Translations under genes and position numbers: made by a program | The notes under the pieces: generated by a model | What the model saw: only the letters and a program-made list of their open reading frames with translations | Told to the model about the DNA's origin: nothing | Databases searched by the model: none | Assembly: GCA_035250975.1 (NCBI GenBank) | Contig: DATFEP010000059.1 | Span: forward strand, 1 to 53,298 | Source of the DNA: Nitrososphaeraceae archaeon | Lineage (GTDB): Archaea; Thermoproteota; Nitrososphaeria; Nitrososphaerales; Nitrososphaeraceae | Reading direction: 5' to 3' | Length of the DNA: 53,298 nt | Part shown: positions 29,160 through 53,298 of the stretch, in pieces | Position numbering within the stretch: the first letter of the stretch is position 1 | How the letters are laid out: each line of letters starts with the position of its first letter

Positions 29160-29510
29160 TTCTAAACGGAATAATAAATAGAATACTTTAGGACTTTCTC
29201 AAACTTAATTTCTCAAATTTAAAACTATAGAATAATAGAAACATTAATAATATATAACTATATTGAAGTATCAAAAAAATATGACATATTAATTCCCAGT
29301 TTAAATATCGTTGGTCTAACTGATCTTAACAGGAGTGGAGATCCATCCTTGTCTAACTATCAACATTTGATAATTTAATCCTTGGCATAATAATAAAAAT
29401 TGGTCTTTGATTGGATCTAAATATAACCAAGTTAAAAAAAAATGAAGATCGATTTTAATTAGAATATTTGTAAATTAAAAATTTCAATCCTATTTTGAAA
29501 AAATAATATT

Positions 29511-29924
29511 TTATTTGTTGTTGTAAGCTCTTTCCAATTCTTTTACATAGTTGAAATAATTTTGATAATTAAAATAATTTTGAGTTGTATCATTGAAATA
29601 TCTTTGAGCAAATTCAATATTTCTGCCAAATTTTTCTATATTTTCCAACATCATTTCATTTATGAAATTTGTTCGGTTAGTAATATTATCTACAACATTT
29701 TTGTTAATTGTATTGTATGCTTCAATAAATCTTTCCGGAATCCGTGAAGTATTCCAGTAAAACTTTGGTATATTTTCAAGAAATTGGCCATATGCTGATT
29801 GACAGGAATAAAATACGTTTTTTTGTAATTGAATATTATTTTCATATAATCTTCTAGTTTCATCTTGAAATTTACTAATTGCTTTTGTAGCCTCATTTGT
29901 AATTGTAGACATCAACATTAGCAC
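29511..29924 (-). CDS. Hypothetical helical Asn/Gln-rich protein (phasin-like composition)
   Basis: 137-aa amphipathic helical sequence; no motif recognised with certainty. Confidence 0.6.
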   Translation of the reverse strand: MLMLMSTITNEATKAISKFQDETRRLYENNIQLQKNVFYSCQSAYGQFLENIPKFYWNTSRIPERFIEAYNTINKNVVDNITNRTNFINEMMLENIEKFGRNIEFAQRYFNDTTQNYFNYQNYFNYVKELERAYNNK

Positions 29925-30189
29925 GTAATTTAGTGATATTAAGATTAATACTACTATCTATTTATTTTTGCTTTAACTATGTACAATAAAGATCGCTTTT
30001 AATTTAAGAAAATAGATTTAGCTACGAATGTTCTATTTCTAAATCTATGATCAGTAGATTTCTTGAAAGAAACTGAACGCCCACTGCAACAATTATGTAC
30101 TCTATTTATTAGCACATGCTTGGCCTCGATCTTTGAAAGAATTGGAATGTATTAGAATAGGAAGGAAGGATCAAACCTGGGCCAGGTTG

Positions 30190-30300
30190 TTAATGAACTG
30201 GTTCCTCAATATGTTTTGTTCTTGGATTCTTGAATGTCCAGTATTCTTTTTTGTATCCATCCTGAAAGTTACGAGCACCATCACAAATCGAAACATTGAT
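30190..30300 (-). mobile_element. Possible DDE transposase fragment
   Basis: Minus strand reads ICDGARNFQDGYKKEYWTFKNPRTKHI, resembling the xxDG segment of IS6-like transposases. Confidence 0.35.
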
Positions 30301-30355
30301 TTTTTTTAAAGAAATAATTGATATTGTACTGGATAATATATTTAAAAGAATAGTC

Positions 30356-30655
30356 ATGACAGCATTAAAAGATGATTTGGATAAAGTAGTATCAATATTA
30401 CATGCAACTTTTGAATTACCAGGAATACAAAGAAAATATGATGAATCATTTGGTCAGATTTCTAATATTTTAAGTCGATACGGCATCAATGAAAATCCAA
30501 AAAATCTACGTGTTGTGTATACTTTATGCATGCAACAATTTTTTGAATCTATACCTGAAGATAAATGGAGATTAAATGACCCTTCATTTATTAAAGAATC
30601 AGAAGAATTTGGAATTATAAAATTCAAAGAATGGATAATAGAACAAATAACTTGA
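30356..30655 (+). CDS. Hypothetical protein
   Basis: ORF track 30296..30655; probable ATG (MTALKDD) at 30356. Confidence 0.6.
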   Translation: MTALKDDLDKVVSILHATFELPGIQRKYDESFGQISNILSRYGINENPKNLRVVYTLCMQQFFESIPEDKWRLNDPSFIKESEEFGIIKFKEWIIEQIT

Positions 30656-31017
30656 TATATTTAAAAACCTCATAGATTTCAGTGTAGCCAACCAGATGTT
30701 TTATTATTTAAAATTCTTTTGGAAAAGGAAAGACGTTATTATTGTGTGACACATAAATTAAATAAAAAAAATAAATTTGATTGTAACCTTTGCGTTGTTG
30801 TACAATTACAAAAATCAATAATTGGTCATAACCTAATTATTGAATTTAATCTCGTTTTTATTATGACACGAGATAATTTAAGCAGTATACTAAAGAGCAA
30901 TACGAATTTTATTTGAAATCTATACTGTGTTTGTAGTATACTATATGTTTAGCGAAATCATTTTAGTTGCTATAGTTATGCAAAAACAAAATATCTAGCC
31001 ATAAAGTTTCATTATAT

Positions 31018-31341
31018 CTATTTGTTGAATTTACGATAGTGGGCTATTGTATTATTACAAATCATGCATTTGTATTCTCCCTTTTCTAGTAAAATAACAT
31101 CTTCTGTAATATCCTCATTTGGATTCTCATAGGTTATCAGAGGAGATCCAAGATATTCTTTTCCACATTTGTTACAATAATACCTTGTTAATCTTTTTTT
31201 GTCTAGTCTACCTATATTTCCCAAGAATAAATGTGGTACTCCTATACTGAACTTTAGTTCTTCATCTTCTGTTAGGTATGCGAAAGCATAACCACCTGAG
31301 CCTAACAGTTTCTTCTCTTCTAAATCCTCATTTTTATGCAA
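31018..31341 (-). CDS. Small zinc-ribbon protein
   Basis: Two CxxC pairs (YCNKCGK, YKCMICN). Confidence 0.75.
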   Translation of the reverse strand: MHKNEDLEEKKLLGSGGYAFAYLTEDEELKFSIGVPHLFLGNIGRLDKKRLTRYYCNKCGKEYLGSPLITYENPNEDITEDVILLEKGEYKCMICNNTIAHYRKFNK

Positions 31342-31520
31342 ACGTATTATCTATTCATAAATAATAAATTGTAAGATTAAAGCTTTAACTTAAGTAGAAT
31401 CCAAATAGAAGGACATAAGAGAACGTTAATGGATAAATCATTTTGTTATTGTTTCAGATGGGAGTTATGATAAAGTCATAACTGTTTCGCAATGTTCCGA
31501 TAATCCATCTTGTAATAAGC

Positions 31521-31575
31521 ATATGACAGAATAAGTCGTCTGTCGAAACGAGCGTGTCAATCCCGCCCAGTCCAT
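31521..31575 (+). repeat. Dispersed repeat copy A (inverted arms plus tRNA-3'-like tail)
   Basis: ATATGACAGAAT-aagtcg-TCTGTCGAAaCGAgcGTGTCAAT matches 33594-33634 at 34/41 nt; ATCCCGCCCAGTCCAT matches 26310-26325 exactly. Confidence 0.75.
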
Positions 31576-31691
31576 TGAATGATAATCTTTTCCTGTGCTA
31601 ACAAAAAGACACAAACATAAATGAAAGTGTCAATCTTCTGAAAATTAATTTATATAGAAGCTACTAATGAAAATTGAGTATAATACTACTT

Positions 31692-32006
31692 TCATCGGAG
31701 TTCCTGAAGTGGTTCTGTCGAATTGAAGGATTCCAATGTGTTCTTTAATTGCTCGTCTAATTCTTGTTGCTGCATTTTCAAATCTCTTTCGAATTCATCT
31801 GTCACATTATAGGATTGCGTTGTTTCCGTTGTTTGCTTTAATTGCTCGTCTAATTCTTGTTGCTGCATTTTCAAAATGCTTTCGAATTCATCTGAAGCGT
31901 TTGAAGTTTGGGCTTGAATATTCTGACTGGATAATCCTATGAAGAGAACAAAAAAAATGGCCAAAATACTAAACTTGTTAAAATTTAAAAATATTGCCGG
32001 TAGCAT
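31692..32006 (-). CDS. Small exported protein with 31-aa tandem duplication
   Basis: Signal peptide ending IQAQ; DEFExxLKMQQQELDEQLK occurs twice; DNA repeat at 31743 and 31836 (93-bp period). Confidence 0.75.
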   Translation of the reverse strand: MLPAIFLNFNKFSILAIFFVLFIGLSSQNIQAQTSNASDEFESILKMQQQELDEQLKQTTETTQSYNVTDEFERDLKMQQQELDEQLKNTLESFNSTEPLQELR

Positions 32007-32367
32007 TACTCTTTTTCTAGCATTGATATATTATAATAACCATTTAAATTTTGATTATAAATCCACTAGAAGGTAGATGATTTAGTTTTCATATGTATCT
32101 AGGTTTATAATCAGACAGAATAAACTCGCTTTATAGCCTTTATTGGAAGCGATATTAACATCATCTCTAATGGTTCTAAACCCACCAGTAGTTTCGACTG
32201 CAGAAGCACAAGCGTACTGTCATGAATACGGCTATGATAATTATTAGAAAGGTGATATAGATAGACGGATACGATAAAGGATATTAAGAAAGATATAAAA
32301 AACTCAATTTTCGTATTTAATAAAAGTTTAACCACGTAGTGAAATTATCATTCCGTCACCTGCATTT

Positions 32368-33336
32368 TTACTCGGACAATACTTGTTTAAGTGTATGAGA
32401 TGCCTGGTCTATTGCACCCCTTGCTGCAGGAGTATCGGTAATTGAATTTAGCATCACAAAGTCATGAATAGTGCCAAGATAGCGGGTTGCAGTGGTTACA
32501 ACTCCAGCCTGCATCAGTTTATGAGCATAGGCCTCACCTTCATCACGAAGTACGTCATTCTCTCCGACTATGATAAGTGTAGGCGGTAATCCACTAAGCT
32601 GCTCAACTGATGCTTGCAGGGGACAAACAGTTGGCTCTTTTAAATCAGTATCATTTGAAAGGTAATTATCCCAAAACCATTTCATTGCTTCACGGGTAAG
32701 AAAGTAACCTTCTTCATATTTCAAATATGATGGAGTGTCAAAATTCGCATCTGTGACTGGGTAAAAGAGTAATTGGAACGTGATAGGATTTCCACCCCGT
32801 TCTTTGGCAAGTAGTGCAACTGCAGTAGCGATGTTGCCACCTGCACTATCACCTGCTACGGCTATCCGTGAAGGATCTACATTGATAGTTTGACCATTTT
32901 CTGCAATCCATTTTGTAGCAGCATATCCTTCTACTACAGGTATTGGATACTTAGCCTCGGGGGACCGAGTATAATTTACAAATATAATGGCTGCATGTGC
33001 CCCGTTAGCAAGTTCCCTTAATAGTCTCTCATGAGTATCAAAACCACCCAGGACCCATCCACCACCATGGAAGTACACTACAACAGGTAGAGTCTCGTTT
33101 CTGCTACCTTGGGGTCTGACTATCTGAATAGATATTTCACCGCTAGGACCCCCTGGAATAGTTTTGTTTTCGATTTCAGCGGCAAGTTTTTGTATTTGAC
33201 CAGACTGAAGACCAGAGAGTATATTACGAGCTTCATTGGGTGTCAAAGTATAGAGTGGAGGACCGGCGTTCTTTTGTAGACTTTCTAGAAATATTCGAGT
33301 ACTACTTTCTACAGTAGAATAATTGTACTTATCCAC
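32368..33336 (-). CDS. Alpha/beta hydrolase, hormone-sensitive-lipase family esterase
   Basis: YFHGGGW, GDSAGG nucleophile elbow, ENDVLRDEG, IHDF. Confidence 0.93.
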   Translation of the reverse strand: MDKYNYSTVESSTRIFLESLQKNAGPPLYTLTPNEARNILSGLQSGQIQKLAAEIENKTIPGGPSGEISIQIVRPQGSRNETLPVVVYFHGGGWVLGGFDTHERLLRELANGAHAAIIFVNYTRSPEAKYPIPVVEGYAATKWIAENGQTINVDPSRIAVAGDSAGGNIATAVALLAKERGGNPITFQLLFYPVTDANFDTPSYLKYEEGYFLTREAMKWFWDNYLSNDTDLKEPTVCPLQASVEQLSGLPPTLIIVGENDVLRDEGEAYAHKLMQAGVVTTATRYLGTIHDFVMLNSITDTPAARGAIDQASHTLKQVLSE

Positions 33337-33593
33337 TGCATATACTAATGGATTGGTATTATTTAAAAACGATGAAATGCTAATTCCAATTGTTATTGAT
33401 ATTACGATAATTGATGAAAAATACTAAGCAAGTTTGTTTTTCATCTTATTATGATATAGATTTTCGTATTTATTATTTTATTTACTTATTAACAGTCAAT
33501 AATAAAGATAAAGACTCGATAAACTAACAGTTTCTAATTTGAAATGATTCATATAAAAAAAAATAAATATACTTTAAACTACATAGCATGAGA

Positions 33594-33634
33594 ATATGAC
33601 AGAATCATTATTCTGTCGAACCGATTGTGTCAAT
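33594..33634 (+). repeat. Dispersed repeat copy B
   Basis: ATATGACAGAAT-cattat-TCTGTCGAAcCGAttGTGTCAAT, an ungapped match to 31521-31561. Confidence 0.75.
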
Positions 33635-33854
33635 GCCCATCAATTTGTATTCCACTACCAAAATCTTTTTTCTTACCAAATGCCATATCGATAAAGCAAG
33701 ATTTTGCAAAAGAAAAGCGATTACCCTCTCTTTCATTCATAATAAATTGAATGTAACAATAAGAAAGTATGAAGTATTTCATAATGGGAAGAACTGTTAA
33801 TTTAAGATTAATTCAACTCCTTTTTTAACAAGGATAATAAAATAATTTTTCTTA

Positions 33855-33972
33855 GATGTCATAACATTATTGTACATGAAAATAAAGAATTGTATCCAGT
33901 TATACAGATGAAATAGATTACATTCATTTTGCATACATGGTCACTAGTTATCAAAATTCTATATTGTGTCCT
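33855..33972 (-). mobile_element. IS6-family transposase 3' fragment
   Basis: Minus strand reads NFDN**PCMQNECNLFHLYNWIQFFIFMYNNVMT. Confidence 0.7.
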
Positions 33973-33989
33973 GACTCATTGTAATGATC

Positions 33990-34380
33990 ACTTAGTCTCA
34001 TCATGAGTCAGTCCTATTTGGTACTACAAGTTTGGAAGTAAAACATACCTGTTTAAGCAGTTTGACTGCTTTGATTCATGAAAATACTTTTTGTATTATC
34101 TGAAACAGATACAGAAAGATTCCAAAATGTTACCTATACTTGATAAAGCAAAGAACATTACAATTCAAAAATACTGTAATATTTTGATGAATACAAGCAT
34201 AATCTGATTCCAGTATATATTTTCAATGCGTCTTCAGAGTTTATGGTATTGGAAGAAATATCGAATATGACCAAAAAATGATCTTCTTGTCCTACAGAAT
34301 TATTCATCCTTCAGAGAGTTCATAATTAAAATATCTAGATATTTTAGAACAAAAAGATTCAATCTGAATACGAGGAATCC
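33990..34380 (+). mobile_element. IS630-family transposase remnant
   Basis: Broken frames give LFGTTSL, LFKQFDCFD, ILDKAK, LIPVYIFNASSEFMVLEE and NDLLVLQNYSSFREFIIKISRYFRTKRFNLN (IS630-type DDE C-terminus with an SPE-like motif). Confidence 0.6.
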
Positions 34381-34432
34381 CCTCATCTGAGGTGAATAAG
34401 CATATTTATCTTAATTGCTAAAATATCTAGTT

Positions 34433-34630
34433 TCATATGTACAGATTTAGTTCTGTTATGATTGTAGATACCGTTTGCAAGTTATATTTCTCTTCCTCTA
34501 TGTAAGAACAACAGTAATATTGAATATTTTTGACATTTTCGTTTTGTGCTAGTACTCCAGACATGGGTATCGCAAGTAGTGCAATAACCATTCCTGAAAT
34601 TAGGAAAACTAATGGGTATTTTTTTTCCAT
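34433..34630 (-). pseudogene. Signal-peptide-bearing short ORF, probably a truncated exported-protein gene
   Basis: Clear signal peptide (MEKKYPLVFLISGMVIALLAIPMSGVLAQ) followed by only about 35 residues. Confidence 0.4.
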
Positions 34631-34929
34631 ATTTATTTCTGTAATTGTATACTGAATTCTTATTCTTAAAGATATCGATAAATAGACTGACAGCTTTACG
34701 AAAAAAAGATATTGTATGTTACTAACTAGCCATATACTAGCTTAGATTATAATAAAATTTAAGAAAATCAATTATTATAGTCTATTAAGCATATACAATG
34801 TGTTTAGCCCTGTATATCTTGTTGTTCCGAAGATTAATATTAATCATGTTTACAAGAAACAAAAAACATTCAACACTTATTCTAGTAAATTTTGTATTTG
34901 TTCTACAATAAATCAAAGGTCCTAGTAAT

Positions 34930-35505
34930 ATTTAGAGATGAGAAATGGAATCATGTTTCTGTTTGCAATTTGATTTAGGAATTTTTTTCATATCAAATAT
35001 ATAGTAAAAGAAAAAAAGTATCGCATTTATTATAGATGAAACTCCTATTCAGATTGGAAAACAATATTACTACCTGCTATGGATTTATGTTGAACCAGTA
35101 TTCATCCCTTGCTTAGTATTCTTATTTTATATGATAGAAACGTGCTTGTTGATGAAAATTAATTTGATCTGGTTGAAAGGTGTGTAATACATATTGTCTA
35201 CTAGGAAGGTGGTATCAAATGACATTCACAGAAATTTAAATTTAAACATTTAAAATATAGACAAAATTCCCCACTGGAAAGGTGATCAATTGAGATTTAC
35301 GGATTAGATAAATAAGAGAAACGAAATTTTGATCATCACATCATTAATAGATAACAGAGTACATCATTAACATATAACAGAGAAGTGATCTATCACAAGT
35401 ATACATTGGATGAAAATTTCCATGTACGGGTCCAACATTATAATAAAAAATAAAATTTCATTCCTAAAAAGAGATGAGTTACCCTAAAAGTTTACAGGAC
35501 CGTTA
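34930..35505 (+). mobile_element. Highly degraded IS6-family element
   Basis: AFIIDETPIQIGKQYYYLLWIYVEPV, DRNVLVDEN, VY*EGG and SPLE in broken plus-strand frames. Confidence 0.65.
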
Positions 35506-35777
35506 TCAACTAATAATGAAATTTATTGACAAATACATCATGCTACATTGTACTAACATTACTCTTTTGAATTATCGAATTTCCCTATACTAAAAATTAT
35601 ATGGTTTTAGAAGCATTCCTTAGTATTGAATTAGCATTAAAACAAGATAGGGAAAATTTAAAATGTCTTAAGGCATTTTCTCCTAATAAATAGATGAATA
35701 CATTGATAAATTGAGTATCCATTATTTTTTGATAATGGAATTAATTCTGACAGCCTGAATTCTTTCTACGAAATCAA

Positions 35778-35803
35778 AATATTTTTCGGCGCCGAAAAAT
35801 ATT
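35778..35803. repeat. Perfect 26-bp palindrome
   Basis: AATATTTTTCGGCGCCGAAAAATATT; degenerate second copy at 42832-42855. Confidence 0.85.
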
Positions 35804-36029
35804 CATAATTATATTTCAGATATCGTATCTGGTCTTATGCATCAAAGAATAACGAAGGATAGTGTATTACAATAATTCGATATATCAGGATTATAATAAG
35901 ATGTAGATCTAGTGTAATTGCGCAATAGATCTATTTTATATTTATACTTGACATCACTGACACGGTCTATCACTAACTGACCAGCTAGTAATTTTATAAC
36001 TTAATTAGACGTCTTCCGTAATTGAAAAA

Positions 36030-36728
36030 GTTTTACTATCTACTGTTACCCTCATCTTTTCTGAATTCTTACTATTATTATGATAAGTTATTGCTATTCT
36101 TCCTGATGATCCCGTAATTCACAAGACCAAGTACAGTATCTGTTCCTGTATCTTACGCATTATACAGAATTTCTTTATCCTGCAGACGATAAGTTCTATA
36201 ATGATTCGCTGTCTGCAATGATTATTTTTGTTATACTCTTTTTTCTTCCTTAGTCAATTCAATATTTCTTTTCTTCTTTACTACTAATGCTACTTTCAGA
36301 TTGGGAAAGTCTTTTCTATTCCTTGCTATCCAAGATCAAAATTGTGTTAGCTTGTTGTGGTGTTATCGGATGTTCATCCTTGTAAATGTTATAGTCATGC
36401 CGTATTGACTAGGCGTTCTATGTATGTGTCTTATATCTCTGAACACGTCGCTGTGGTCCAGATCGAACAGAAATCCTGAAGGTGTATTTGTTATGTCAAG
36501 TCTGTAGTACACCAAAATTACTAGAAATCTTTCTCTTAATTTCAGTTCCAAATGATTTCCTGCACCCACTTCTCTTGTTCTATTCTTTCTTTTACATAGA
36601 CATTTTATTTCGTATTGCGGATATCTGTATTCTATTACCTTGCAAATTAAATCAAATTCAGATAATTCCAGACCTGTTAATCACCTGAATAGTTGTGCTT
36701 TTCTTGATAAACGAGTGTAATTTAACAA
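36030..36728 (-). mobile_element. IS5-superfamily (HTH_Tnp_4/DDE_Tnp_4-type) transposase pseudogene
   Basis: LLNYTRLSRKAQLFR*LTGLELSEFD...GAGNHLELKLRERFLVILVYYRLDIT...GFLFDLDHSDVFRDI, later DLG*QGIEK; internal stops and frameshifts. Confidence 0.75.
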
Positions 36729-36897
36729 ATCTATAAGTAATTATGCTTTACAAGAGTGAAATAGGTGCAAGCTATCTAATCTTCCAAACCATCTAAATAT
36801 CAATATTGCTTAACAATATTACAATTACAAAAATTGGTCTAAGAAGTAGTCAAAAAACTTTAAAAGTTAATGAAGAATTAAACATTATATTGAAATA

Positions 36898-38292
36898 ATG
36901 AGTACAAATAATGACCTAAAATATCCAGATCAAAAGCAACAGCAAATTTTCATTAGTTATGCGCATGAGGACTTAGATGCTGCTAATCGTCTTTTTCATG
37001 ATCTGAAAGAGTTTGAAAAAGAATTTAAATTAAAATTTTGGTTAGATAAAGACAGTCTTTTACCTGGTCAAAATTGGTCAGAAGTCATACAAAATGTTAT
37101 TACAGAAAGTAAATACTTTATTTTGTTATTATCTAAAAATGCGATTGAAAAAAATACGTATGTACAAGAAGAATTAAGAATGGCCCTAGAAAAGGCTGAA
37201 AACCATCAACAAGCTGAAATCTATATAATACCCATACGTTTAGATGATTGTCAAATATCAGAATCGATCCAAAAGCTTCATGTTGTCGATTTATTTCCCG
37301 ATTGGAAACATGGATTTGAAAAAATATTATTGGCGATGAAAATTGGAGCAAAACCTAAAAAATTAACTGATGTTTATTGGGAGAATTTATTAGATGCTAT
37401 TGATAGAAAAAACTGCATTCCCTTTATTGGAAGCTCGGCCCTTGAATTTTTTAATCAAGTAGATGATAATGCTTTTCTTACCAACGACGAATTAGCAAAG
37501 GAATGGGCAAAAAAATATGACTATCCCTTTGAAGCTCCATATCAATTACCAAAAGTAGCCCAATATGTGGCAATAAATGAACTAGGTAACGAGATGGAAG
37601 CTAAGCAGAATGTCAGTACCAGATTTAGAAGAATGAAACCACCTAATTTTTTATCAAACAAATTTAATAAATCTCCACATGCAATTCTTGCCGAACTAAA
37701 TTTACCTATTTACATCACAACAAATTATGATTTTTTTATGGAAGAGGCATTAAAAAGTCAAGAAAAGAAACCGGTCAGTGGATTGTGTAGATGGAACGAT
37801 GAATTGAAAAACTCTATTGAAGAGAGAACAGAACAAGATCAATATCGACCTACAAAAGATGAACCATTGGTATTTCATTTCCATGGTTGCATAGATTATC
37901 CTGAATCATTGGTTTTAACTGAAAGAGATCATTTTGAATTTGTTATTTATACCAATAAAGAAAGTGAGAAAGATATGTTACCAACATTTTTGAGAAAAGC
38001 ATTGCCTACTTCAACATTATTATTTATCGGATACAGCCTAGATGACATTAATTTCCGCTCGATATTTCAGGGGGCTCTCAGCTTCATGGCTAGTGTCCGT
38101 AAACGCAGAAATAGCATAGCAGTCATACAAATCCCGGTAGAAAATGATTCTGTAAAAAAGGAAAAAGTTACTAAATATTTGGATCGCTACACAAAAGAGA
38201 TGTTTGAAATAGTAATTTACTGGGGAGAACCAAATGATTTTATCGAAGAATTACAGACAAGATGGAAAGAATTTAAGGAAAACAAGAGTTAA
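36898..38292 (+). CDS. TIR domain plus SIR2-like (SIR2_2) domain fusion protein
   Basis: TIR: IFISYAHED, WLDKDSLLPGQNW, YVQEEL (Glu retained), IIPIRLDDC. SIR2-like: CIPFIGS, YITTNYD, FHFHG, LVLTERD, LLFIGYSLDDINFR. Confidence 0.9.
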   Translation: MSTNNDLKYPDQKQQQIFISYAHEDLDAANRLFHDLKEFEKEFKLKFWLDKDSLLPGQNWSEVIQNVITESKYFILLLSKNAIEKNTYVQEELRMALEKAENHQQAEIYIIPIRLDDCQISESIQKLHVVDLFPDWKHGFEKILLAMKIGAKPKKLTDVYWENLLDAIDRKNCIPFIGSSALEFFNQVDDNAFLTNDELAKEWAKKYDYPFEAPYQLPKVAQYVAINELGNEMEAKQNVSTRFRRMKPPNFLSNKFNKSPHAILAELNLPIYITTNYDFFMEEALKSQEKKPVSGLCRWNDELKNSIEERTEQDQYRPTKDEPLVFHFHGCIDYPESLVLTERDHFEFVIYTNKESEKDMLPTFLRKALPTSTLLFIGYSLDDINFRSIFQGALSFMASVRKRRNSIAVIQIPVENDSVKKEKVTKYLDRYTKEMFEIVIYWGEPNDFIEELQTRWKEFKENKS

Positions 38293-38306
38293 GGGTTGAC
38301 CTATAT

Positions 38307-41300
38307 ATGGACCGTATAGAGAATTACTTTAAACACATCCAGGCTTCTAACTCATTGAATAGGATTGATAAAAAAAGCCTCGAACCTTACATTGGTCCTC
38401 GCCCATTTAATAGGGATCCAGAGGATCAAAAAAGATTTTTTGGTAGAGATTATGAAACCGAGGAAATTGTATCTCTAATTTCTAGCCATAAACTTGTCTT
38501 AATATATGCTCAATCTGGAGCGGGAAAGACATCTATATTTAATGCACAAGTAATTCCCACTTTAGAACAAGATGGATTTGAGGTCTTACCTGTTATCAGA
38601 TTAAAATCATCCAATATTAGTACTAACTTGGACACCAATGATGTTAAAAATATATGCATATTTAATAGCTTACAGAGCCTAAGGCCAGATCTTGATCCAA
38701 ATACACTAAAGGATAAATCACTGACAGAATTCTTACAAGAATATTTTCCAATAAAGAAAGATAAAAACGATAGGGAAATGCAACAAATATTAATATATGA
38801 TCAATTGGAAGAAATCTTTGACATCCTTCCAAGAAATTGGAAAGAACAAAGAAAGGAATTCTTTAATGAAATTGTTAAAGTCTTGAATGATATTATTCCG
38901 CTTCAAATCGTCTTTATCATTAGAGAAGACTATTTGGCACAATTAGATCCCTATACCAATAACCTGCCTGAAAAATTAAGACCTCGTTTTAGACTTGAAC
39001 GATTACGAGCAGATTCGGCTTTGTTAGCAATAAAAGGTCCACTAAAAGATGTTCCTAGAGATGTTATTCAAAATTATAAAGGAGATATAGATAAAGATAT
39101 AAATGATATAGTTCACGAATTGATGAAAATTCAAATAGAATATATGCCCGGGAAAACTCAACAAATAGAAGGCGAATTCATAGAACCTATTCAGCTTCAA
39201 GTCGTTCTTAAAAGATGGTGGGAAAAAATAACTAATCCTAACAGTAAAATCGTTAAACAAAATTTAATTTATGTTTCTGACGTAGATACTGCTTTGGAAG
39301 AATTCTATGAAGATGCTATAAATGATGTCATTAACAAAGACAAGATAAAAGAAAGCGAAATCAGAAAATGGTGTGAAGAAAATTTAATTACGCAAACAGG
39401 TACTAGAGGTATTGTTCATAAAGGTTCGGATTCAACCGCAGGCCTTAGAAATGATTTAATTGATATTTTAGAAAAGAAATATTTTATCAAGGAAAATCGT
39501 CGAGCTGGTGCGAGATGGTGTGAGTTAACTCATGATAGGTTAATCAAACCAATAATATCATCTAATCAAAAATGGAGAAAAGAACAGCAAAAAAGAAACA
39601 AATTAAAATTTGTAAAAATTTCAATACCCGTGGTAATTTCCGTTATTGTGATATTTGTAATTTATGAGTCTTTGTATCTAATACCTGTAGTTGAATCATT
39701 TCCTGCAGGCTATTTACCCTACGTTCTATCAGTTGATCAAAGTTCAGGATTAGTATATGTAACCAATCCCACATCAGACACGATCTCAGTTATAAATGGG
39801 AAAAAAAATGAACTAGTTAAGACTATAAACGTCCCAGATAATCCGCTTGATATTGCCGTGAATTCACAAAATAATTTAGTTTATGCTTCCATTCCAAAGA
39901 ACCAAAGTATATCAGTGATACAAAGAGATAATTTAATGCACGTTTTAAATCCATTCATCAAAAAGATACCAATAATTCAGGGAGTTTTTGATTACGATGT
40001 AACTAATATACCCTTAAATTATTCACCCCTTTCGTTGGGACTCGACTCTGTTCATTCCAAATTATATGTGAGCTCCCAGAATCTTGTATCTGTGATTGAC
40101 ACAAATACTAATAAAATCAATGAAACTATAAAAATAGCATATACTCCATACGAGGTTTCCGTTGATACGAAATCCAATAAAGTATATGTTGCTAATTATA
40201 AAGGTAATAAAGTATCTATTATTGATGGAACTGATTACAAGATATTAAAAACAATTACTGTTGGAAATAATCCAAGTAGCATAGTATTTAATCCTAATGA
40301 TAATAAAGTATATGTTGCTAATAGTGGAGATGATACTGTATCTGTTATAGATGGAACTGATTACAAGATATTAAAAACAATTACTGTTGGAAAAAGCCCA
40401 AGTAGCATGATATTTAATCCTAATGATAATAAAGTATATGTTGCTAATAAAGGAGATAACACAGTATCTGTTATAGATGAAAGAAATAATAACGATATAG
40501 TAGTAGCTATTTTCGAAGTTGGAAATAATCCTACGAGTATCAATATCAATGAAGGTCAAAATATACTTTACATAGTCAACAATTTGGACAATAAACTAAA
40601 AGCAATAGATAGGGGTAACAATTTAATGAAAAATTTCATTAGTTTCTTTAATAGTGGTAACCAACCAACAGAATTTGTTATAAATAAAATTCCTGTTGGT
40701 ATTCACCCATCAGGAATAGCCACAGATGCTGAAACCAAAATGGTATATGTGGCTAATACTGATTCCAATACTGTATCTGTTATAGATGGAACAAAAAATG
40801 AAATAAAAGAACAATTTAATGTAGGAGAAAAACCTCGAGACATCGATAGTATAAATGATACGATATATGTATCCAATTCTCTTTCTAACACAGTATCAGT
40901 TATAGACCGAGAAGAAGGATCTATTAAAAATATCACCACTGAAGGTAAATATCCTACAGGTTTGGCAGCTAACGAAAAGACCAATCTAGTATATGTTGCT
41001 AATACTGACTCAGACGATATATCAGTAATAAATGGTACAACCAAGAAAGTTGATTCAATAATAAACGTTGGAAATGCTCCAACTAGTATAGTAGTTGATG
41101 AAAGTAATAATTTTATATACGTAACTAATTATGAAAATGATAATGTATCAGTAATAAATGGTACAACCAAGAAAGTTGATCCAATAATAAAAGTTGGAAA
41201 TGGTCCAACCAGTATAGCATTTGATTCTGAAAAAAATTTAGTATACGTGGCGAATTATCTAGATGATACTATATCCGTAATAAATGCCACCGACAAGGTG

Positions 41301-41612
41301 AATTATGGAAGTATAAACATTAGTAGAGATTATCCAGGGAACGGTCCCACAGCAATAGCTGTTGATTCAAAAAATAATAAAATTTATGTATTAAACGTGT
41401 TCAGTGACAATATATCAGTTATAGATACAGGTTTCATAACAGATTCATTAAAAGATAGTAAAACTATTAATCAGGAGCAGAAATATGTACTATATGTTAT
41501 TCTTGCAGGAGATTCCCCAAGTGATATATCGATTAGTTCTGAAAAATTATATGTACCCAATCGCGGTCATAATATAGCACACATATTGAATGTTGCAGTT
41601 TCTAACGAGTAA
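38307..41612 (+). CDS. nSTAND1-type NTPase, single TM helix, YVTN/YncE beta-propeller repeats
   Basis: PYIGPRPF..FFGRD, Walker A AQSGAGKTS, Walker B LIYDQLEE, IIREDY, ELTHDRL; basic patch then TM ISIPVVISVIVIFVIY; about 14 YVTN/YVAN..SVID repeats. Confidence 0.9.
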   Translation: MDRIENYFKHIQASNSLNRIDKKSLEPYIGPRPFNRDPEDQKRFFGRDYETEEIVSLISSHKLVLIYAQSGAGKTSIFNAQVIPTLEQDGFEVLPVIRLKSSNISTNLDTNDVKNICIFNSLQSLRPDLDPNTLKDKSLTEFLQEYFPIKKDKNDREMQQILIYDQLEEIFDILPRNWKEQRKEFFNEIVKVLNDIIPLQIVFIIREDYLAQLDPYTNNLPEKLRPRFRLERLRADSALLAIKGPLKDVPRDVIQNYKGDIDKDINDIVHELMKIQIEYMPGKTQQIEGEFIEPIQLQVVLKRWWEKITNPNSKIVKQNLIYVSDVDTALEEFYEDAINDVINKDKIKESEIRKWCEENLITQTGTRGIVHKGSDSTAGLRNDLIDILEKKYFIKENRRAGARWCELTHDRLIKPIISSNQKWRKEQQKRNKLKFVKISIPVVISVIVIFVIYESLYLIPVVESFPAGYLPYVLSVDQSSGLVYVTNPTSDTISVINGKKNELVKTINVPDNPLDIAVNSQNNLVYASIPKNQSISVIQRDNLMHVLNPFIKKIPIIQGVFDYDVTNIPLNYSPLSLGLDSVHSKLYVSSQNLVSVIDTNTNKINETIKIAYTPYEVSVDTKSNKVYVANYKGNKVSIIDGTDYKILKTITVGNNPSSIVFNPNDNKVYVANSGDDTVSVIDGTDYKILKTITVGKSPSSMIFNPNDNKVYVANKGDNTVSVIDERNNNDIVVAIFEVGNNPTSININEGQNILYIVNNLDNKLKAIDRGNNLMKNFISFFNSGNQPTEFVINKIPVGIHPSGIATDAETKMVYVANTDSNTVSVIDGTKNEIKEQFNVGEKPRDIDSINDTIYVSNSLSNTVSVIDREEGSIKNITTEGKYPTGLAANEKTNLVYVANTDSDDISVINGTTKKVDSIINVGNAPTSIVVDESNNFIYVTNYENDNVSVINGTTKKVDPIIKVGNGPTSIAFDSEKNLVYVANYLDDTISVINATDKVNYGSINISRDYPGNGPTAIAVDSKNNKIYVLNVFSDNISVIDTGFITDSLKDSKTINQEQKYVLYVILAGDSPSDISISSEKLYVPNRGHNIAHILNVAVSNE
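40176..40480 (+). repeat. Near-identical 126-bp propeller-blade repeats
   Basis: AATAAAGTATATGTTGCTAAT at 40176, 40302 and 40428; a second duplicated pair starts at 41021 and 41147. Confidence 0.9.
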
Positions 41613-41685
41613 TATTTTTATAGTTTTAAAAAAATGAACGCTAATATCATGGAAATAGTTTAATAATATAGATCTCCAGATAAGT

Positions 41686-42639
41686 ATGATGCAAATTATC
41701 ATAGTGTTAATTATCATTTTCCTATCTTTTGTAATATCATTTGAATCTAGTTTCATATACGAATTATATGCTGAAAAAGATTTAGTTATTGATGAAAAAG
41801 TACATATTACAATATCTAAAGATAATGAGACTCTAATTGTTCCTGCGAAAATAGGAATTGATCCAAAGTTATGGAAAGACCATTCATTAGACTATTATAG
41901 TTTTGACCCTAATGCTAACAATACTTCTCCTTTAAACACAAAAAATTATAATGGAACTATTTACATGGAATCAATTTACGATAGAGAGTTTACTCTACAA
42001 AATTTTTTAGATGTATGGGGCTTTGACAAAAGTAAAATAAAAAATATTTTTTGTAGTGAAAAACAATTATGCGATCTTGATTTAACTTTAACTGATGGTC
42101 AAAATTTAAGATTAGAGCTCGAAAATGATAAAACTCTAAATAATTTTACCAAATATATCCATCCAAAAATAACTTTTGAATATCCTTCTCAATGGAAAAT
42201 AACTAATTCGATATTAGGCAATGAAACATTCTATGATGAGTTGATTAAAGTATTCCCAAAGGAAGCAGAATATATGACTACTCCTTTCTTTTCTATACAA
42301 ATCAAAAAATTAGATTCGAATATGACAACATTAGACGAATATTATATGAATAATTTACCCAGTTTATTACAGGCAGATGAAAATATTTTTCCTCACTTTA
42401 TATATTATAATAAAACTGAATTCGATGGTAATCTTGCATACCTTATATTGTTAGATACTACTTTAGTTGCAGAACCTGGTTCATCTGAAAAAGGCAACGA
42501 GATTACACAAAAAGAATCTCATATTTGGACCATAAAAGGTGGTTATTTTTATGATATATCCTATAAAGCTTTGAATGCAGTTTACAACGACTATTGGTCT
42601 ATGCAAAAAAAAATCATCAATTCAATACGAATACAATAA
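41686..42639 (+). CDS. Exported protein with C-terminal PsbP/Mog1-like domain
   Basis: N-terminal signal or TM segment; VPAKIGIDP..REFTLQNFLDVWG domain; FTKYIHPKITFEYPSQW...FDGNLAY...YDISY..IINSIRI (PsbP-like). Confidence 0.7.
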   Translation: MMQIIIVLIIIFLSFVISFESSFIYELYAEKDLVIDEKVHITISKDNETLIVPAKIGIDPKLWKDHSLDYYSFDPNANNTSPLNTKNYNGTIYMESIYDREFTLQNFLDVWGFDKSKIKNIFCSEKQLCDLDLTLTDGQNLRLELENDKTLNNFTKYIHPKITFEYPSQWKITNSILGNETFYDELIKVFPKEAEYMTTPFFSIQIKKLDSNMTTLDEYYMNNLPSLLQADENIFPHFIYYNKTEFDGNLAYLILLDTTLVAEPGSSEKGNEITQKESHIWTIKGGYFYDISYKALNAVYNDYWSMQKKIINSIRIQ

Positions 42640-42831
42640 TAAATAACATTATACATGCTACAAAATATATTCCATTGAATCTATTGCAAGGTCAAAAACG
42701 TAGTTGATTTGTTTGCCTCAATACCAAATTTTGGCAGTTGTCGATGATAGAGATTCAATATTTGATGTAAATTTTGATCTGGAATTATTCCTCATCTATT
42801 AGAAACAATTTTTTATTGATATCAATGAAAA

Positions 42832-42855
42832 AAATTTTTCGGTGCGGAAAAATTT
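42832..42855. repeat. Degenerate copy of the 35778 palindrome
   Basis: AAATTTTTCGGTGCGGAAAAATTT; two substitutions in the CGGCGCCG core. Confidence 0.7.
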
Positions 42856-43033
42856 GACAGATGATGTATACTGATTTTAGTATATTATTATGAAATCTCT
42901 TTTTTAATATTATCTCCCTATGGATAATATTTAAATCTGAGCCTCTAGTTATCCTGAGTGTGTTTTTTTCTGCTTAATAATTCTCTGCTTTGGAAAATTA
43001 ATAGATATATTCTTAAAACATGGAATATTTTTT

Positions 43034-52154: not shown

Positions 52155-53298
52155 CTATTTTTTTGTAGTAGTATTATTCATCAATTTATTAAACACAGTT
52201 AATTCTTTTTCAGTTAGTAATTCAGTTAAATTTGCATTTATTTGCAGGGCTTTTTCAAAATAAGATTTGGCGTCATCATAATTTCCTACATTATACATTA
52301 TTAAGGCAGCAGTATTAAGATGATATTCATTATTTGAATCAGATTCAAGCGCTTTTTGAACAAGTGGTAAAGCCTCTTCATTTTTATTAAGGTTTGCTAA
52401 AACATTCGCTTTGTTATTTAGTGCATTAACATGTGCTGGTTCTATAGCTAGGGCTTTGTCATAGTACTGTAGAGCTTCATTATATCTTTTTAAATCTTTT
52501 AAAACGTTGGCTTTGTTATTTAGTGCATTAAAATATGTAGGATCTATAGATAGGGCTTTATCATAATACTGTAACGCTTCATCATATCTATGTTGTTGTT
52601 GTAAAGCATATGCTTTGCCATTTAATACATTAACATTTGAAGAATCTATAGATAGAGCCTTTTCATAGTACTGCAATGCCTCATCATATCTTTGTAAGTA
52701 TTGTAAAGTATTGGCTTTGTTATAGAGTGCATAAATAAACTTTGGATCTATAGATAGAGCCTTTTCATAGTACTGCAATGCCTCATCATATCTTTGAAGA
52801 TCTTGTAAAACAAGAGCTTTGTTATTCAATGCATAACTAGCTGATGGATCAATTTTCAGTACTTTATCAAAGTACTGTATAGCTTCATCATTCCTATGTA
52901 AATTTTTCAAAGTATTGGCTTTTCCATTTAACAAATTGAGATTTGTGGGATCTATAGATAGGGCTTTATTATAGTACTTTAATGCGTCATCATTTTCCTT
53001 TAGAATTTCGAAAATATTGGCTTTGTTATATAATGCATTTACATCATTTGTTCCTATAGCGAGCACTTTATCATAGTACTGTAGAGCTTCATCATATCTT
53101 TTTAAATCTTTTAAAACAATAGCTTTGTTTTTCAGTGCATCAACATATTTGGGATCTATTGCTAGTGCTTTGTCATAGTACTGAATAGCTTCATCATATT
53201 TTTTTAAATCATATAAAACAACTGCTCTATTATTTAGTGCATAAATATATGTAGGATCTATAGCCAGTACTTTGTCAATGTACTCCAATGCCTCATCA
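52155..53298 (-). CDS. Tetratricopeptide repeat protein (5' end outside the window)
   Basis: About 10 tandem 34-aa repeats of the form ALNNKAxxLxxLxRYDEALQYYDKALxIDP. Confidence 0.95.
   Translation of the reverse strand, partial: DEALEYIDKVLAIDPTYIYALNNRAVVLYDLKKYDEAIQYYDKALAIDPKYVDALKNKAIVLKDLKRYDEALQYYDKVLAIGTNDVNALYNKANIFEILKENDDALKYYNKALSIDPTNLNLLNGKANTLKNLHRNDEAIQYFDKVLKIDPSASYALNNKALVLQDLQRYDEALQYYEKALSIDPKFIYALYNKANTLQYLQRYDEALQYYEKALSIDSSNVNVLNGKAYALQQQHRYDEALQYYDKALSIDPTYFNALNNKANVLKDLKRYNEALQYYDKALAIEPAHVNALNNKANVLANLNKNEEALPLVQKALESDSNNEYHLNTAALIMYNVGNYDDAKSYFEKALQINANLTELLTEKELTVFNKLMNNTTTKK

Follow-up and report, generated by a model that had tools for sequence, protein, structure and literature searches.

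To our knowledge, all characterised prokaryotic STAND/NLR-like immune sensors detect their ligands inside the cell. The locus described here raises the question of whether such a switch can also be operated from the outside, through a membrane-spanning helix. It lies in a 53,298-nt stretch of DNA from a Nitrososphaeraceae archaeon (contig DATFEP010000059.1 of assembly GCA_035250975.1; here contig C54, and as the whole stretch analysed, "the window"), within an assembly of 2.49 Mb that is 94.6% complete. Three open reading frames (ORFs) on its + strand, at 36898-38292, 38307-41612, and 41686-42639, are separated by spacers of 14 and 73 nt, and encode a TIR-SIR2 protein (P0001), an nSTAND1 protein with a single transmembrane (TM) segment and a repeat domain (P0002), and an exported-looking protein (P0003). 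A sequence-only reading had reported exactly this arrangement and had interpreted it as a receptor of the STAND type, with its sensor outside the cell, acting on a separate effector: the observation is confirmed here, and the interpretation is partly supported, in its core of an effector supplied in trans and a membrane-spanning STAND protein. The answer proposed, at a probability of roughly 0.6, is that the first two genes form an unnamed module of a SIR2 protein and a membrane-spanning nSTAND1 protein, in which an outside sensor would drive assembly of the SIR2 NADase and lead to arrest or death of the cell; the immune role, the binding, and the trigger are what we infer.

The features of these two genes, by position in the window, are as follows.

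36898..38292, + strand: P0001 gene, TIR-SIR2, 464 aa; Pfam TIR_2 and SIR2_2 matches above their cutoffs; ratio of nonsynonymous to synonymous substitution rates (dN/dS) 0.093 against the G048 ortholog
36946..37329, + strand: TIR domain, residues 17-144, by Pfam; candidate catalytic Glu, E92, at 37171-37173
37345..38289, + strand: SIR2 module, residues 150-464, from an alignment of 75 partners and the solved ThsA and KomC SIR2 chains; equals the stand-alone SIR2 partners of ~300 aa
38307..41612, + strand: P0002 gene, nSTAND1-TM-propeller, 1101 aa, by Pfam and TIGR02276; dN/dS 0.227
38385..39566, + strand: cytoplasmic nSTAND1 nucleoside triphosphatase (NTPase) module (predicted location), residues 27-420, by Pfam PF20703, alignment of homologues, and an AlphaFold2 (AF2) model
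38508-38531, + strand: Walker A, A68-T75, from invariant alignment columns
38784-38813, + strand: Walker B region, residues 160-169, from invariant alignment columns
39609..39665, + strand: single TM helix (predicted), residues 435-453, Kyte-Doolittle 2.6, with a basic stretch ending in KRNKLK just before it
39666..41609, + strand: predicted extracellular domain of 14 YVTN/NHL-type blades, by motif count and TIGR02276; fastest-evolving part, dN/dS 0.279

The reference for dN/dS was the orthologous locus of a congener, G048, which has ~91% nucleotide identity over window positions 29466-42947. All three genes are under purifying selection by this measure (0.139 for P0003), and are therefore real genes rather than chance ORFs. 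The ratio is 0.054 for the SIR2 part and 0.145 for the cytoplasmic STAND module.

A conserved pair of SIR2 and nSTAND1 genes

Relatives of the P0002 NTPase module were sought in a one-genome-per-species scan of representative genomes of 185,579 species. At least 543 were confirmed among the 599 pattern matches listed, and 78 loci were kept from these matches, a set that is biased towards the query. In 76 of the 78, a SIR2 homologue is encoded upstream in the same orientation (own ORF calls and phmmer, E <= 1e-3, mostly 1e-35 to 1e-78); of the two others, L086 has its STAND gene at a contig end and L077 has an upstream ORF of 293 aa without a match. SIR2 and STAND genes mostly overlap by 4-22 nt (larger apparent overlaps are an artefact of choosing the first start codon), and in three loci (L031, L065, and L085) the two genes are 223 to 4179 nt apart. 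Two further pairs are found in the same genome: on contig C44 a TIR-SIR2 gene (466 aa) and an nSTAND1-TM-propeller gene (1045 aa) have an 8-nt overlap, and on contig C32 a bare SIR2 gene of 302 aa shares 4 nt with an nSTAND1-TM-TPR gene of 888 aa, giving three paralogues with different sensors. SIR2 followed by nSTAND1-TM-sensor is thus a conserved and widespread two-gene module, and in this co-occurrence elsewhere the sequence-only reading is supported.

The related loci span archaea and at least six bacterial phyla (taxa as named in the records). Eight of the 78 are archaeal (5 Nitrososphaeraceae or Nitrosocosmicus and 3 Methanosarcinaceae); among the bacterial ones are 16 from Acidobacteriota, ~44 with Chloroflexota-type names, and 1-2 each from Planctomycetota, Verrucomicrobiae, Bacteroidota, Actinomycetota, and Pseudomonadota. 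The sequence-only reading had placed the system in an archaeon; among the kept loci it is mainly bacterial. Within the Nitrososphaeraceae the STAND gene is patchy, occurring in 5 of 61 genomes, this one included (E <= 1e-20).

Which part of P0001 is conserved was judged from an alignment of 75 partners: P0001, the two paralogous partners, and 72 of the 76 locus partners (four fragments of <200 aa were dropped). The Pfam tally over these is SIR2_2 in 75 of 75, CHAT in 15, EAD7 in 6, Peptidase_C25 in 5, and TIR in 3, so that SIR2 is the constant partner and TIR a rare addition to it. Of the TIR-SIR2 protein that had been put forward as the effector, the SIR2 part is therefore the conserved partner and the TIR part is not; TIR, CHAT, and EAD7 are N-terminal add-ons on a constant SIR2.

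In P0001 itself, TIR_2 matches residues 17-144 with 84.1 bits (cutoff 28) and SIR2_2 residues 271-417 with 99.5 bits (cutoff 24.5). In the solved TIR chains Cat1, TIR-STING, and PdTIR, the position of E92 is occupied by a conserved Glu, which we take to be the catalytic residue. The SIR2 motifs TTNYD, containing N276 (37723-37725), and FHFHG, containing H329 (37882-37884), both align with those of ThsA and KomC, and the KomC position aligned to H329 is the one changed in a deposited mutant, H146N. PADLOC ThsA models match the SIR2 part (E 1.7e-19), over model positions 40-236 of 478 only, and the Pfam scan found no SLOG or Macro domain in P0001. The TIR Glu and SIR2 His singled out by the sequence-only reading, and the SIR2 Asn as well, are thus intact in these alignments, and P0001 is predicted to be a cytoplasmic effector or partner with NADase activity.

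These residues are not kept throughout the family. Among partners with an N-terminal extension of <90 aa (n=55), Asn and His are both present in 38 and His in 46; among those with an extension of >=90 aa (n=20), both are present in 2 (P0001 and L058) and His in 4. All thirteen partners of 670-770 aa (the CHAT size class) have F or L in place of the catalytic His, and in the SIR2 of the C44 paralogue the catalytic Asn is replaced by T. Since the domain persists after loss of its His when an effector is fused to it, a structural role is suggested, the simplest being docking to nSTAND1; SIR2 thus probably also serves as a docking module. A complex prediction with STAND residues 1-432 and SIR2 residues 150-464, built on alignments made here, scored 0.01 (mark 0.32) and has no bearing either way.

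Some variants of the pair were seen. Two tandem SIR2 genes precede a single STAND gene in six loci (L012, L039, L060, L076, L081, and L083). In the 39 bacterial and archaeal loci with a downstream ORF, no conserved gene was found at that place; a second STAND-like ORF lies directly downstream in only three of these (L048, L050, and L078). At the end of the window (52155-53297, - strand), and cut by the contig end, is a TPR protein that aligns over its full length, to the last residue and at 44-47% identity, with nSTAND1-TM-TPR proteins at their C-terminal ends, the C32 paralogue among them. It may be a fourth system with an unassembled 5′ half; only three STAND N-terminal modules were found in the assembly.

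The STAND protein and its predicted topology

P0002 matches nSTAND1 (PF20703) with 86.2 bits (cutoff 27.1), and its two paralogues with 98.5 and 90.3 bits. As the sequence-only reading had stated, it carries no N-terminal effector: only ~26 residues precede the NTPase module, which begins at residue 27, and they contain no Pfam domain. This is not the classical tripartite architecture of NLR and Avs proteins, with an N-terminal effector in the same chain. Invariant in the homologue alignment are S70, G71, A72, G73, K74, and T75, together with D165, E168, and E169; a conserved ELTHDR motif is found at residues 406-411. An AF2 model of residues 1-470 (pLDDT 81) has the arrangement of nucleotide-binding domain, helical domain, and winged helix, and a Foldseek search with it returned Cdc6/Orc1, archaeal ATPases, ZAR1, Apaf-1, and NRC3, with probability 1.0 but TM-scores of 0.3-0.4. 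No PADLOC Avs model matches P0002, whose sole PADLOC match is mad8 (E 0.018).

Between this module and the repeats lies the hydrophobic segment. In the AF2 model a single unbroken helix (410-457) runs from the end of the winged helix through the basic stretch and into it, and no signal sequence was seen at the P0002 N-terminus. The best 120 of 1994 homologous proteins (E <= 1e-3; 8000 candidates scored) were examined for such segments, taking Kyte-Doolittle >= 1.6 as the limit: 117 of the 120 have one, nearly all at positions 400-490, with values typically of 2.0-3.1 across the family. Among the kept loci it was found in 71 of 74 that could be judged (of 78), the exceptions being L023 (weaker, 1.36), L058 (1.45), and L037 (none).

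To assess orientation, K+R was counted in the 15 residues on each side of the segment, with the conserved HD motif that closes the NTPase module as anchor. Database homologues average 6.48 before the segment vs 0.60 after it, with more before than after in 108 of 108 (13 of the 121 database rows, without the anchor pattern or a TM segment, were not counted); the genome loci average 5.25 before vs 2.33 after, with more before in 55 of 61, 4 ties, and 2 reversed. In two homologues, P0075 and P0115, an Ig-type Big_9 domain follows immediately after the segment. An NTPase module that has no signal sequence and needs cytoplasmic NTP must leave the repeats outside if the segment spans the membrane. 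P0002 and its family therefore appear, as far as sequence can tell, to be type-II single-pass proteins with the NTPase inside and the repeat domain outside; the single TM segment with its basic patch, and the orientation, had both been called in advance from this one sequence, and the family-wide counts support the prediction. N-glycosylation sequons were also considered as topology evidence and rejected: the ectodomain has 11 of them and the cytoplasmic part 1, but composition (N and S/T content) predicts ~14 and 2.5, so that the counts are no evidence for topology.

The repeat domain of P0002 matches TIGR02276 with 239 bits in 9 scored stretches, and by motif count has the 14 YVTN-type blades previously estimated at about that number. 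These would be enough for two seven-bladed propellers (a predicted split). Fifty-six ectodomains were scanned (that of the window, two paralogues, and 53 of 57 loci, four incomplete ones being dropped): WD40 follows the TM segment in 35, Lactonase/YVTN/NHL blades are found in P0002 and most Nitrososphaeraceae homologues, TPR in others, and Ig domains elsewhere. Two pairs of adjacent blades in P0002 are nearly identical (40182-40433, residues 626-709, and 40989-41240, residues 895-978), which suggests recent tandem duplication. A contig from one DNA run (X4) omits exactly 126 nt here (41012 to 41139), as much as a single blade takes up, through either a polymorphism in blade number or an assembly collapse over the repeat.

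The third gene and the surrounding sequence

The remaining gene of the three had been described as encoding an exported PsbP-like protein.

41686..42639, + strand: P0003 gene, 317 aa, subclade-specific accessory; N-terminal hydrophobic anchor or signal, residues 1-19; N-domain, ~35-150; weakly PsbP-like C-domain, 148-313; dN/dS 0.139

It is exported-looking, by its hydrophobic N-terminal segment. The PsbP likeness is below threshold (PsbP_2, 18.6 bits with a cutoff of 27, E 0.002); in its family of 29 members, 9 match PsbP and 5 match PsbP_2 at E <= 0.01, the best at 3.6e-5. An AF2 model built from the 29 sequences was too poor for comparison (pLDDT 47), and an Atlas search gave a best lead of 0.79, under the useful range.

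Whether P0003 belongs to the system at all has to be asked, as it could simply be a neighbour that is inherited with the pair. No homologue was found in any of the 78 related loci, nor any second copy in this genome, so that it is absent from both paralogous loci. In the 73-nt spacer (41613-41685), the stop codon of the STAND gene is closely followed by a T-run, and a TATA-like TTTAATAATATA lies ~15-25 nt ahead of the ATG (by eye, in a genome of 30% GC), so that P0003 may have its own promoter. Against a mere neighbour, the family is tiny (29 clusters among 5.8 billion), and in a metagenome scan each of the five full-length homologues (50-94% identity) immediately follows a STAND-propeller gene; five more give indirect evidence, with longest-contig sizes identical to those of STAND homologues (15637, 5030, 8658, 35514, and 5325), and the gene is under purifying selection. 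That it is no functional component is thus doubtful, if far from negligible. Because the linkage is found there only, P0003 is best regarded as an accessory gene of one Nitrososphaeraceae subclade, possibly a co-receptor, and not as part of the general system.

Thirty-four further metagenome loci (L106-L139) match only residues ~35-180, in Zn-ribbon-TM proteins with no STAND gene nearby. The N-domain (35-150) is part of a wider uncharacterised domain in proteins of Zn-ribbon-TM-ectodomain form, which have conserved IGI..LW.DHSLD and HTHD.SG.IH.E motifs; the His residues of these are lost in P0003 and its close family. Beside the P0003 homologue in L103 (3670-5919) is a second, divergent set, made up of a TIR ORF (+), a SIR2 ORF on the opposite strand, and then the start of another STAND gene.

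The genes that flank the locus within the window are ordinary ones (esterase, cupin, ferredoxin, P450, and alcohol dehydrogenase). Immediately upstream of P0001 is a 3.5-kb region (33400-36890) without an ORF of >=80 aa, with dispersed short segments that share 67-85% identity with many of the genome's other contigs. The sequence-only reading saw mobile-element scars around the locus. A search of this region for transposase remnants gave a single HTH_Tnp_4 fragment (36366-36680, - strand), under the Pfam cutoff (E 6.7e-5 to 1.5e-4), and 9 more stop-to-stop frames matched no family; with this fragment and the dispersed short repeats, a resemblance to decayed mobile or repeat elements is weakly supported.

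A soil metatranscriptome (run X20, searched as contigs) contains six short contigs of 151-267 nt, confined to 37146-38862, where DNA carry-over is possible. One of them runs over the end of P0001 and reaches 20 nt into the STAND gene, below the 31-nt rule for bridging, and no weight attaches to the stretches that lack coverage.

Known systems, alternatives, and meaning

Several known systems share parts with the pair. The Avs family includes the SIR2-bearing Avs5. Avs proteins, a subject of PMC13581612, have a STAND NTPase, a repeat sensor, and an NAD+-type effector, with presumed oligomerisation on ligand binding; they differ in that their sensor is cytoplasmic, binding phage proteins inside, and their effector is in cis, whereas the present pair combines a sensor predicted to lie outside with an effector in trans. 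The name nSTAND1 was given by Kaur et al. (2021) to STAND-FGS proteins with N-terminal effector-associated domains (EADs) or effectors (PMC8195603, in its accessible portion). P0002 shares with that clade its module (PF20703), C-terminal repeat sensors, and ties to TIR, caspase, and EAD; the proteins of that clade, as described in the same portion of PMC8195603, have N-terminal fused effectors or EADs and FGS sensors, while nothing is fused N-terminally here, and a separate, constant SIR2 protein and a TM helix between NTPase and sensor are distinctive. Type I Thoeris (ThsA, SIR2-SLOG, with ThsB, TIR) similarly combines TIR and SIR2, and the SIR2 part of P0001 matches ThsA models and solved chains; here there is no SLOG or Macro domain, TIR and SIR2 form one chain, a STAND receptor is present, and most members lack TIR. 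A separate ThsB-type TIR protein with a SLOG or Macro effector, as in Thoeris, is therefore not what the locus encodes.

Analogous in layout are the PCTM and receptor-like TIR-ParA systems of an October 2026 preprint (bioRxiv 10.64898/2026.10.19.760177), for which periplasmic sensing is predicted in the part available: they have a cytoplasmic NTPase, a single TM segment, and a variable extracellular domain that can be TPR, with an effector gene upstream and, in some cases, an exported protein that binds ligand encoded downstream. There the NTPase is ParA (SIMIBI class), not STAND AAA+, and the effectors given in that part are SLATT, caspase, and CPPC-4h, not SIR2. Toll-like receptors are an analogy only: they too sense with repeats outside the cell, cross the membrane in one TM helix, and signal through TIR in the cytoplasm, but there is no homology of sensor or transducer, and here TIR is on a separate protein (in just 3 of 75 partners), with an NTPase switch between.

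No description of a SIR2 and nSTAND1-TM pair was found in the literature, although the supplementary clade tables of PMC13581612, a 2026 survey of 589 STAND clades whose accessible text frames STANDs as intracellular sensors, may list the clade. In the portions available, one paper predicts a periplasmic lectin sensor for one NACHT target of a diversity-generating retroelement (PMC10907252), and another mentions 'transmembrane STAND ATPases' once, as protease-fused sensors (10.1101/2025.11.14.688446).

The following sequence of events can be proposed. The ectodomain would bind an extracytoplasmic ligand: a virion, envelope damage, or the surface of another cell. Binding or clustering would be transmitted through the rigid helix joining winged-helix domain and TM segment, leading to NTP-dependent oligomerisation of the cytoplasmic modules; the docked SIR2 partner would be drawn into an active assembly and hydrolyse NAD+, with the fused TIR of P0001 perhaps adding a second NAD+-consuming or signal-making activity. 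The outcome would be growth arrest or cell death. In one Nitrososphaeraceae subclade the exported-looking P0003 is added to the pair, perhaps as a co-receptor. A role in biological conflict is suggested by the SIR2_2/ThsA-type partner, the TIR, CHAT, and EAD7 fusions, the patchy distribution, the three paralogues, and the ectodomain being the fastest-evolving part.

Several points weigh against this proposal. The catalytic activity, the binding, and the trigger are things that we infer. Four close relatives have no TM segment: P0117, P0063, P0079, and L037, which are respectively an nSTAND1-patatin fusion, an nSTAND1 with C25 peptidase, an nSTAND1-TPR, and a Scalindua protein; soluble forms therefore exist in the clade, and an outside sensor is not obligatory for it. 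WD40 and TPR repeats, the commonest sensors of the bacterial members, are usually cytoplasmic domains. The association of His loss with fused domains may stem from one or a few clades rather than from many independent events. PADLOC has no model for the STAND protein and gives no match for it or for P0003, in line with the earlier expectation that no full match would be obtained. Finally, no defence-island signal was found among 138 flanking ORFs of the related loci by Pfam: even the most frequent families number <=4 members and belong mainly to metabolism or transport, and the known restriction, CRISPR, Abi, and transposase families are not among the 25 most frequent of 148. The usual defence-island argument is thus inapplicable, since the flanks are heterogeneous housekeeping-type genes.

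Among alternatives to an antiviral trigger, the one that survives best keeps the same architecture and changes what is sensed: surface self and non-self, or a developmental signal for death, in organisms that form aggregates or filaments, as in the allorecognition NLRs of fungi. An outward-facing sensor would fit the sensing of neighbouring cells, and the loci lie outside defence-gene neighbourhoods. Many of the kept-locus hosts belong to Anaerolineae, Caldilineae, Methanosarcina, or Nitrososphaeraceae, which form filaments or aggregates. NTPase conflict systems have also been tied to a multicellular habit by Kaur et al. (PMC7159879, in its accessible portion). The evidence here fits virus sensing equally, however, and the same effector domains occur in proven antiphage systems (the ThsA and KomC SIR2 chains); a non-viral trigger seems unlikely on balance, without being far-fetched.

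A second alternative is that the hydrophobic segment is a mere tether, or does not span the membrane at all, leaving the repeats in the cytoplasm as part of a membrane-localised intracellular NLR-like sensor. The classically intracellular WD40 and TPR repeats that dominate the bacterial members, and the relatives lacking the segment, would be accommodated. There is, though, just the one segment, strongly hydrophobic (typically 2.0-3.1), with a positive-inside bias in every one of the 108 homologues counted, and extracellular-type Ig domains can come right after it; a single helix cannot put both of its flanks on the same side of a membrane. This explanation is accordingly given very little weight. 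About as slight is the chance of housekeeping envelope signalling with SIR2 as a protein deacylase or regulator, to which the housekeeping-type flanking genes and the deacylase activity of canonical sirtuins would lend themselves: the partner matches SIR2_2 and ThsA-type models, not classical sirtuins, it is fused to TIR, CHAT, and EAD7, and the gene is patchy (5 of 61 genomes), with several paralogues bearing different sensors in one genome.

The module of SIR2 and membrane-spanning nSTAND1 thus remains the preferred reading. A broader version of it can be offered tentatively: a family of outside-in, NLR-like immune receptors in archaea and bacteria, in which SIR2 would be a universal adaptor for NADase, TIR, and caspase outputs, a virion or surface damage would be sensed before or during entry by a propeller, TPR, or Ig ectodomain outside the cell, the helix would turn clustering into STAND oligomerisation, and in Nitrososphaeraceae P0003 would be a secreted co-receptor or guarded bait. 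It seems possible, but little firmer than that.

If this broader version is true, the logic of Toll-like receptors and that of NLRs would be joined in one prokaryotic system. A large family with its sensor outside would mean that NLR-type switches are also used for cell-surface surveillance in prokaryotes, and would provide a tractable model for the control of STAND oligomerisation by a single TM helix. The retention of SIR2 as a partner despite loss of its His suggests a structural adaptor role for a domain usually seen only as an NADase. For the ammonia-oxidising archaea, whose defence against viruses is little known, the locus would supply a candidate system, of which a single genome has three or four copies.

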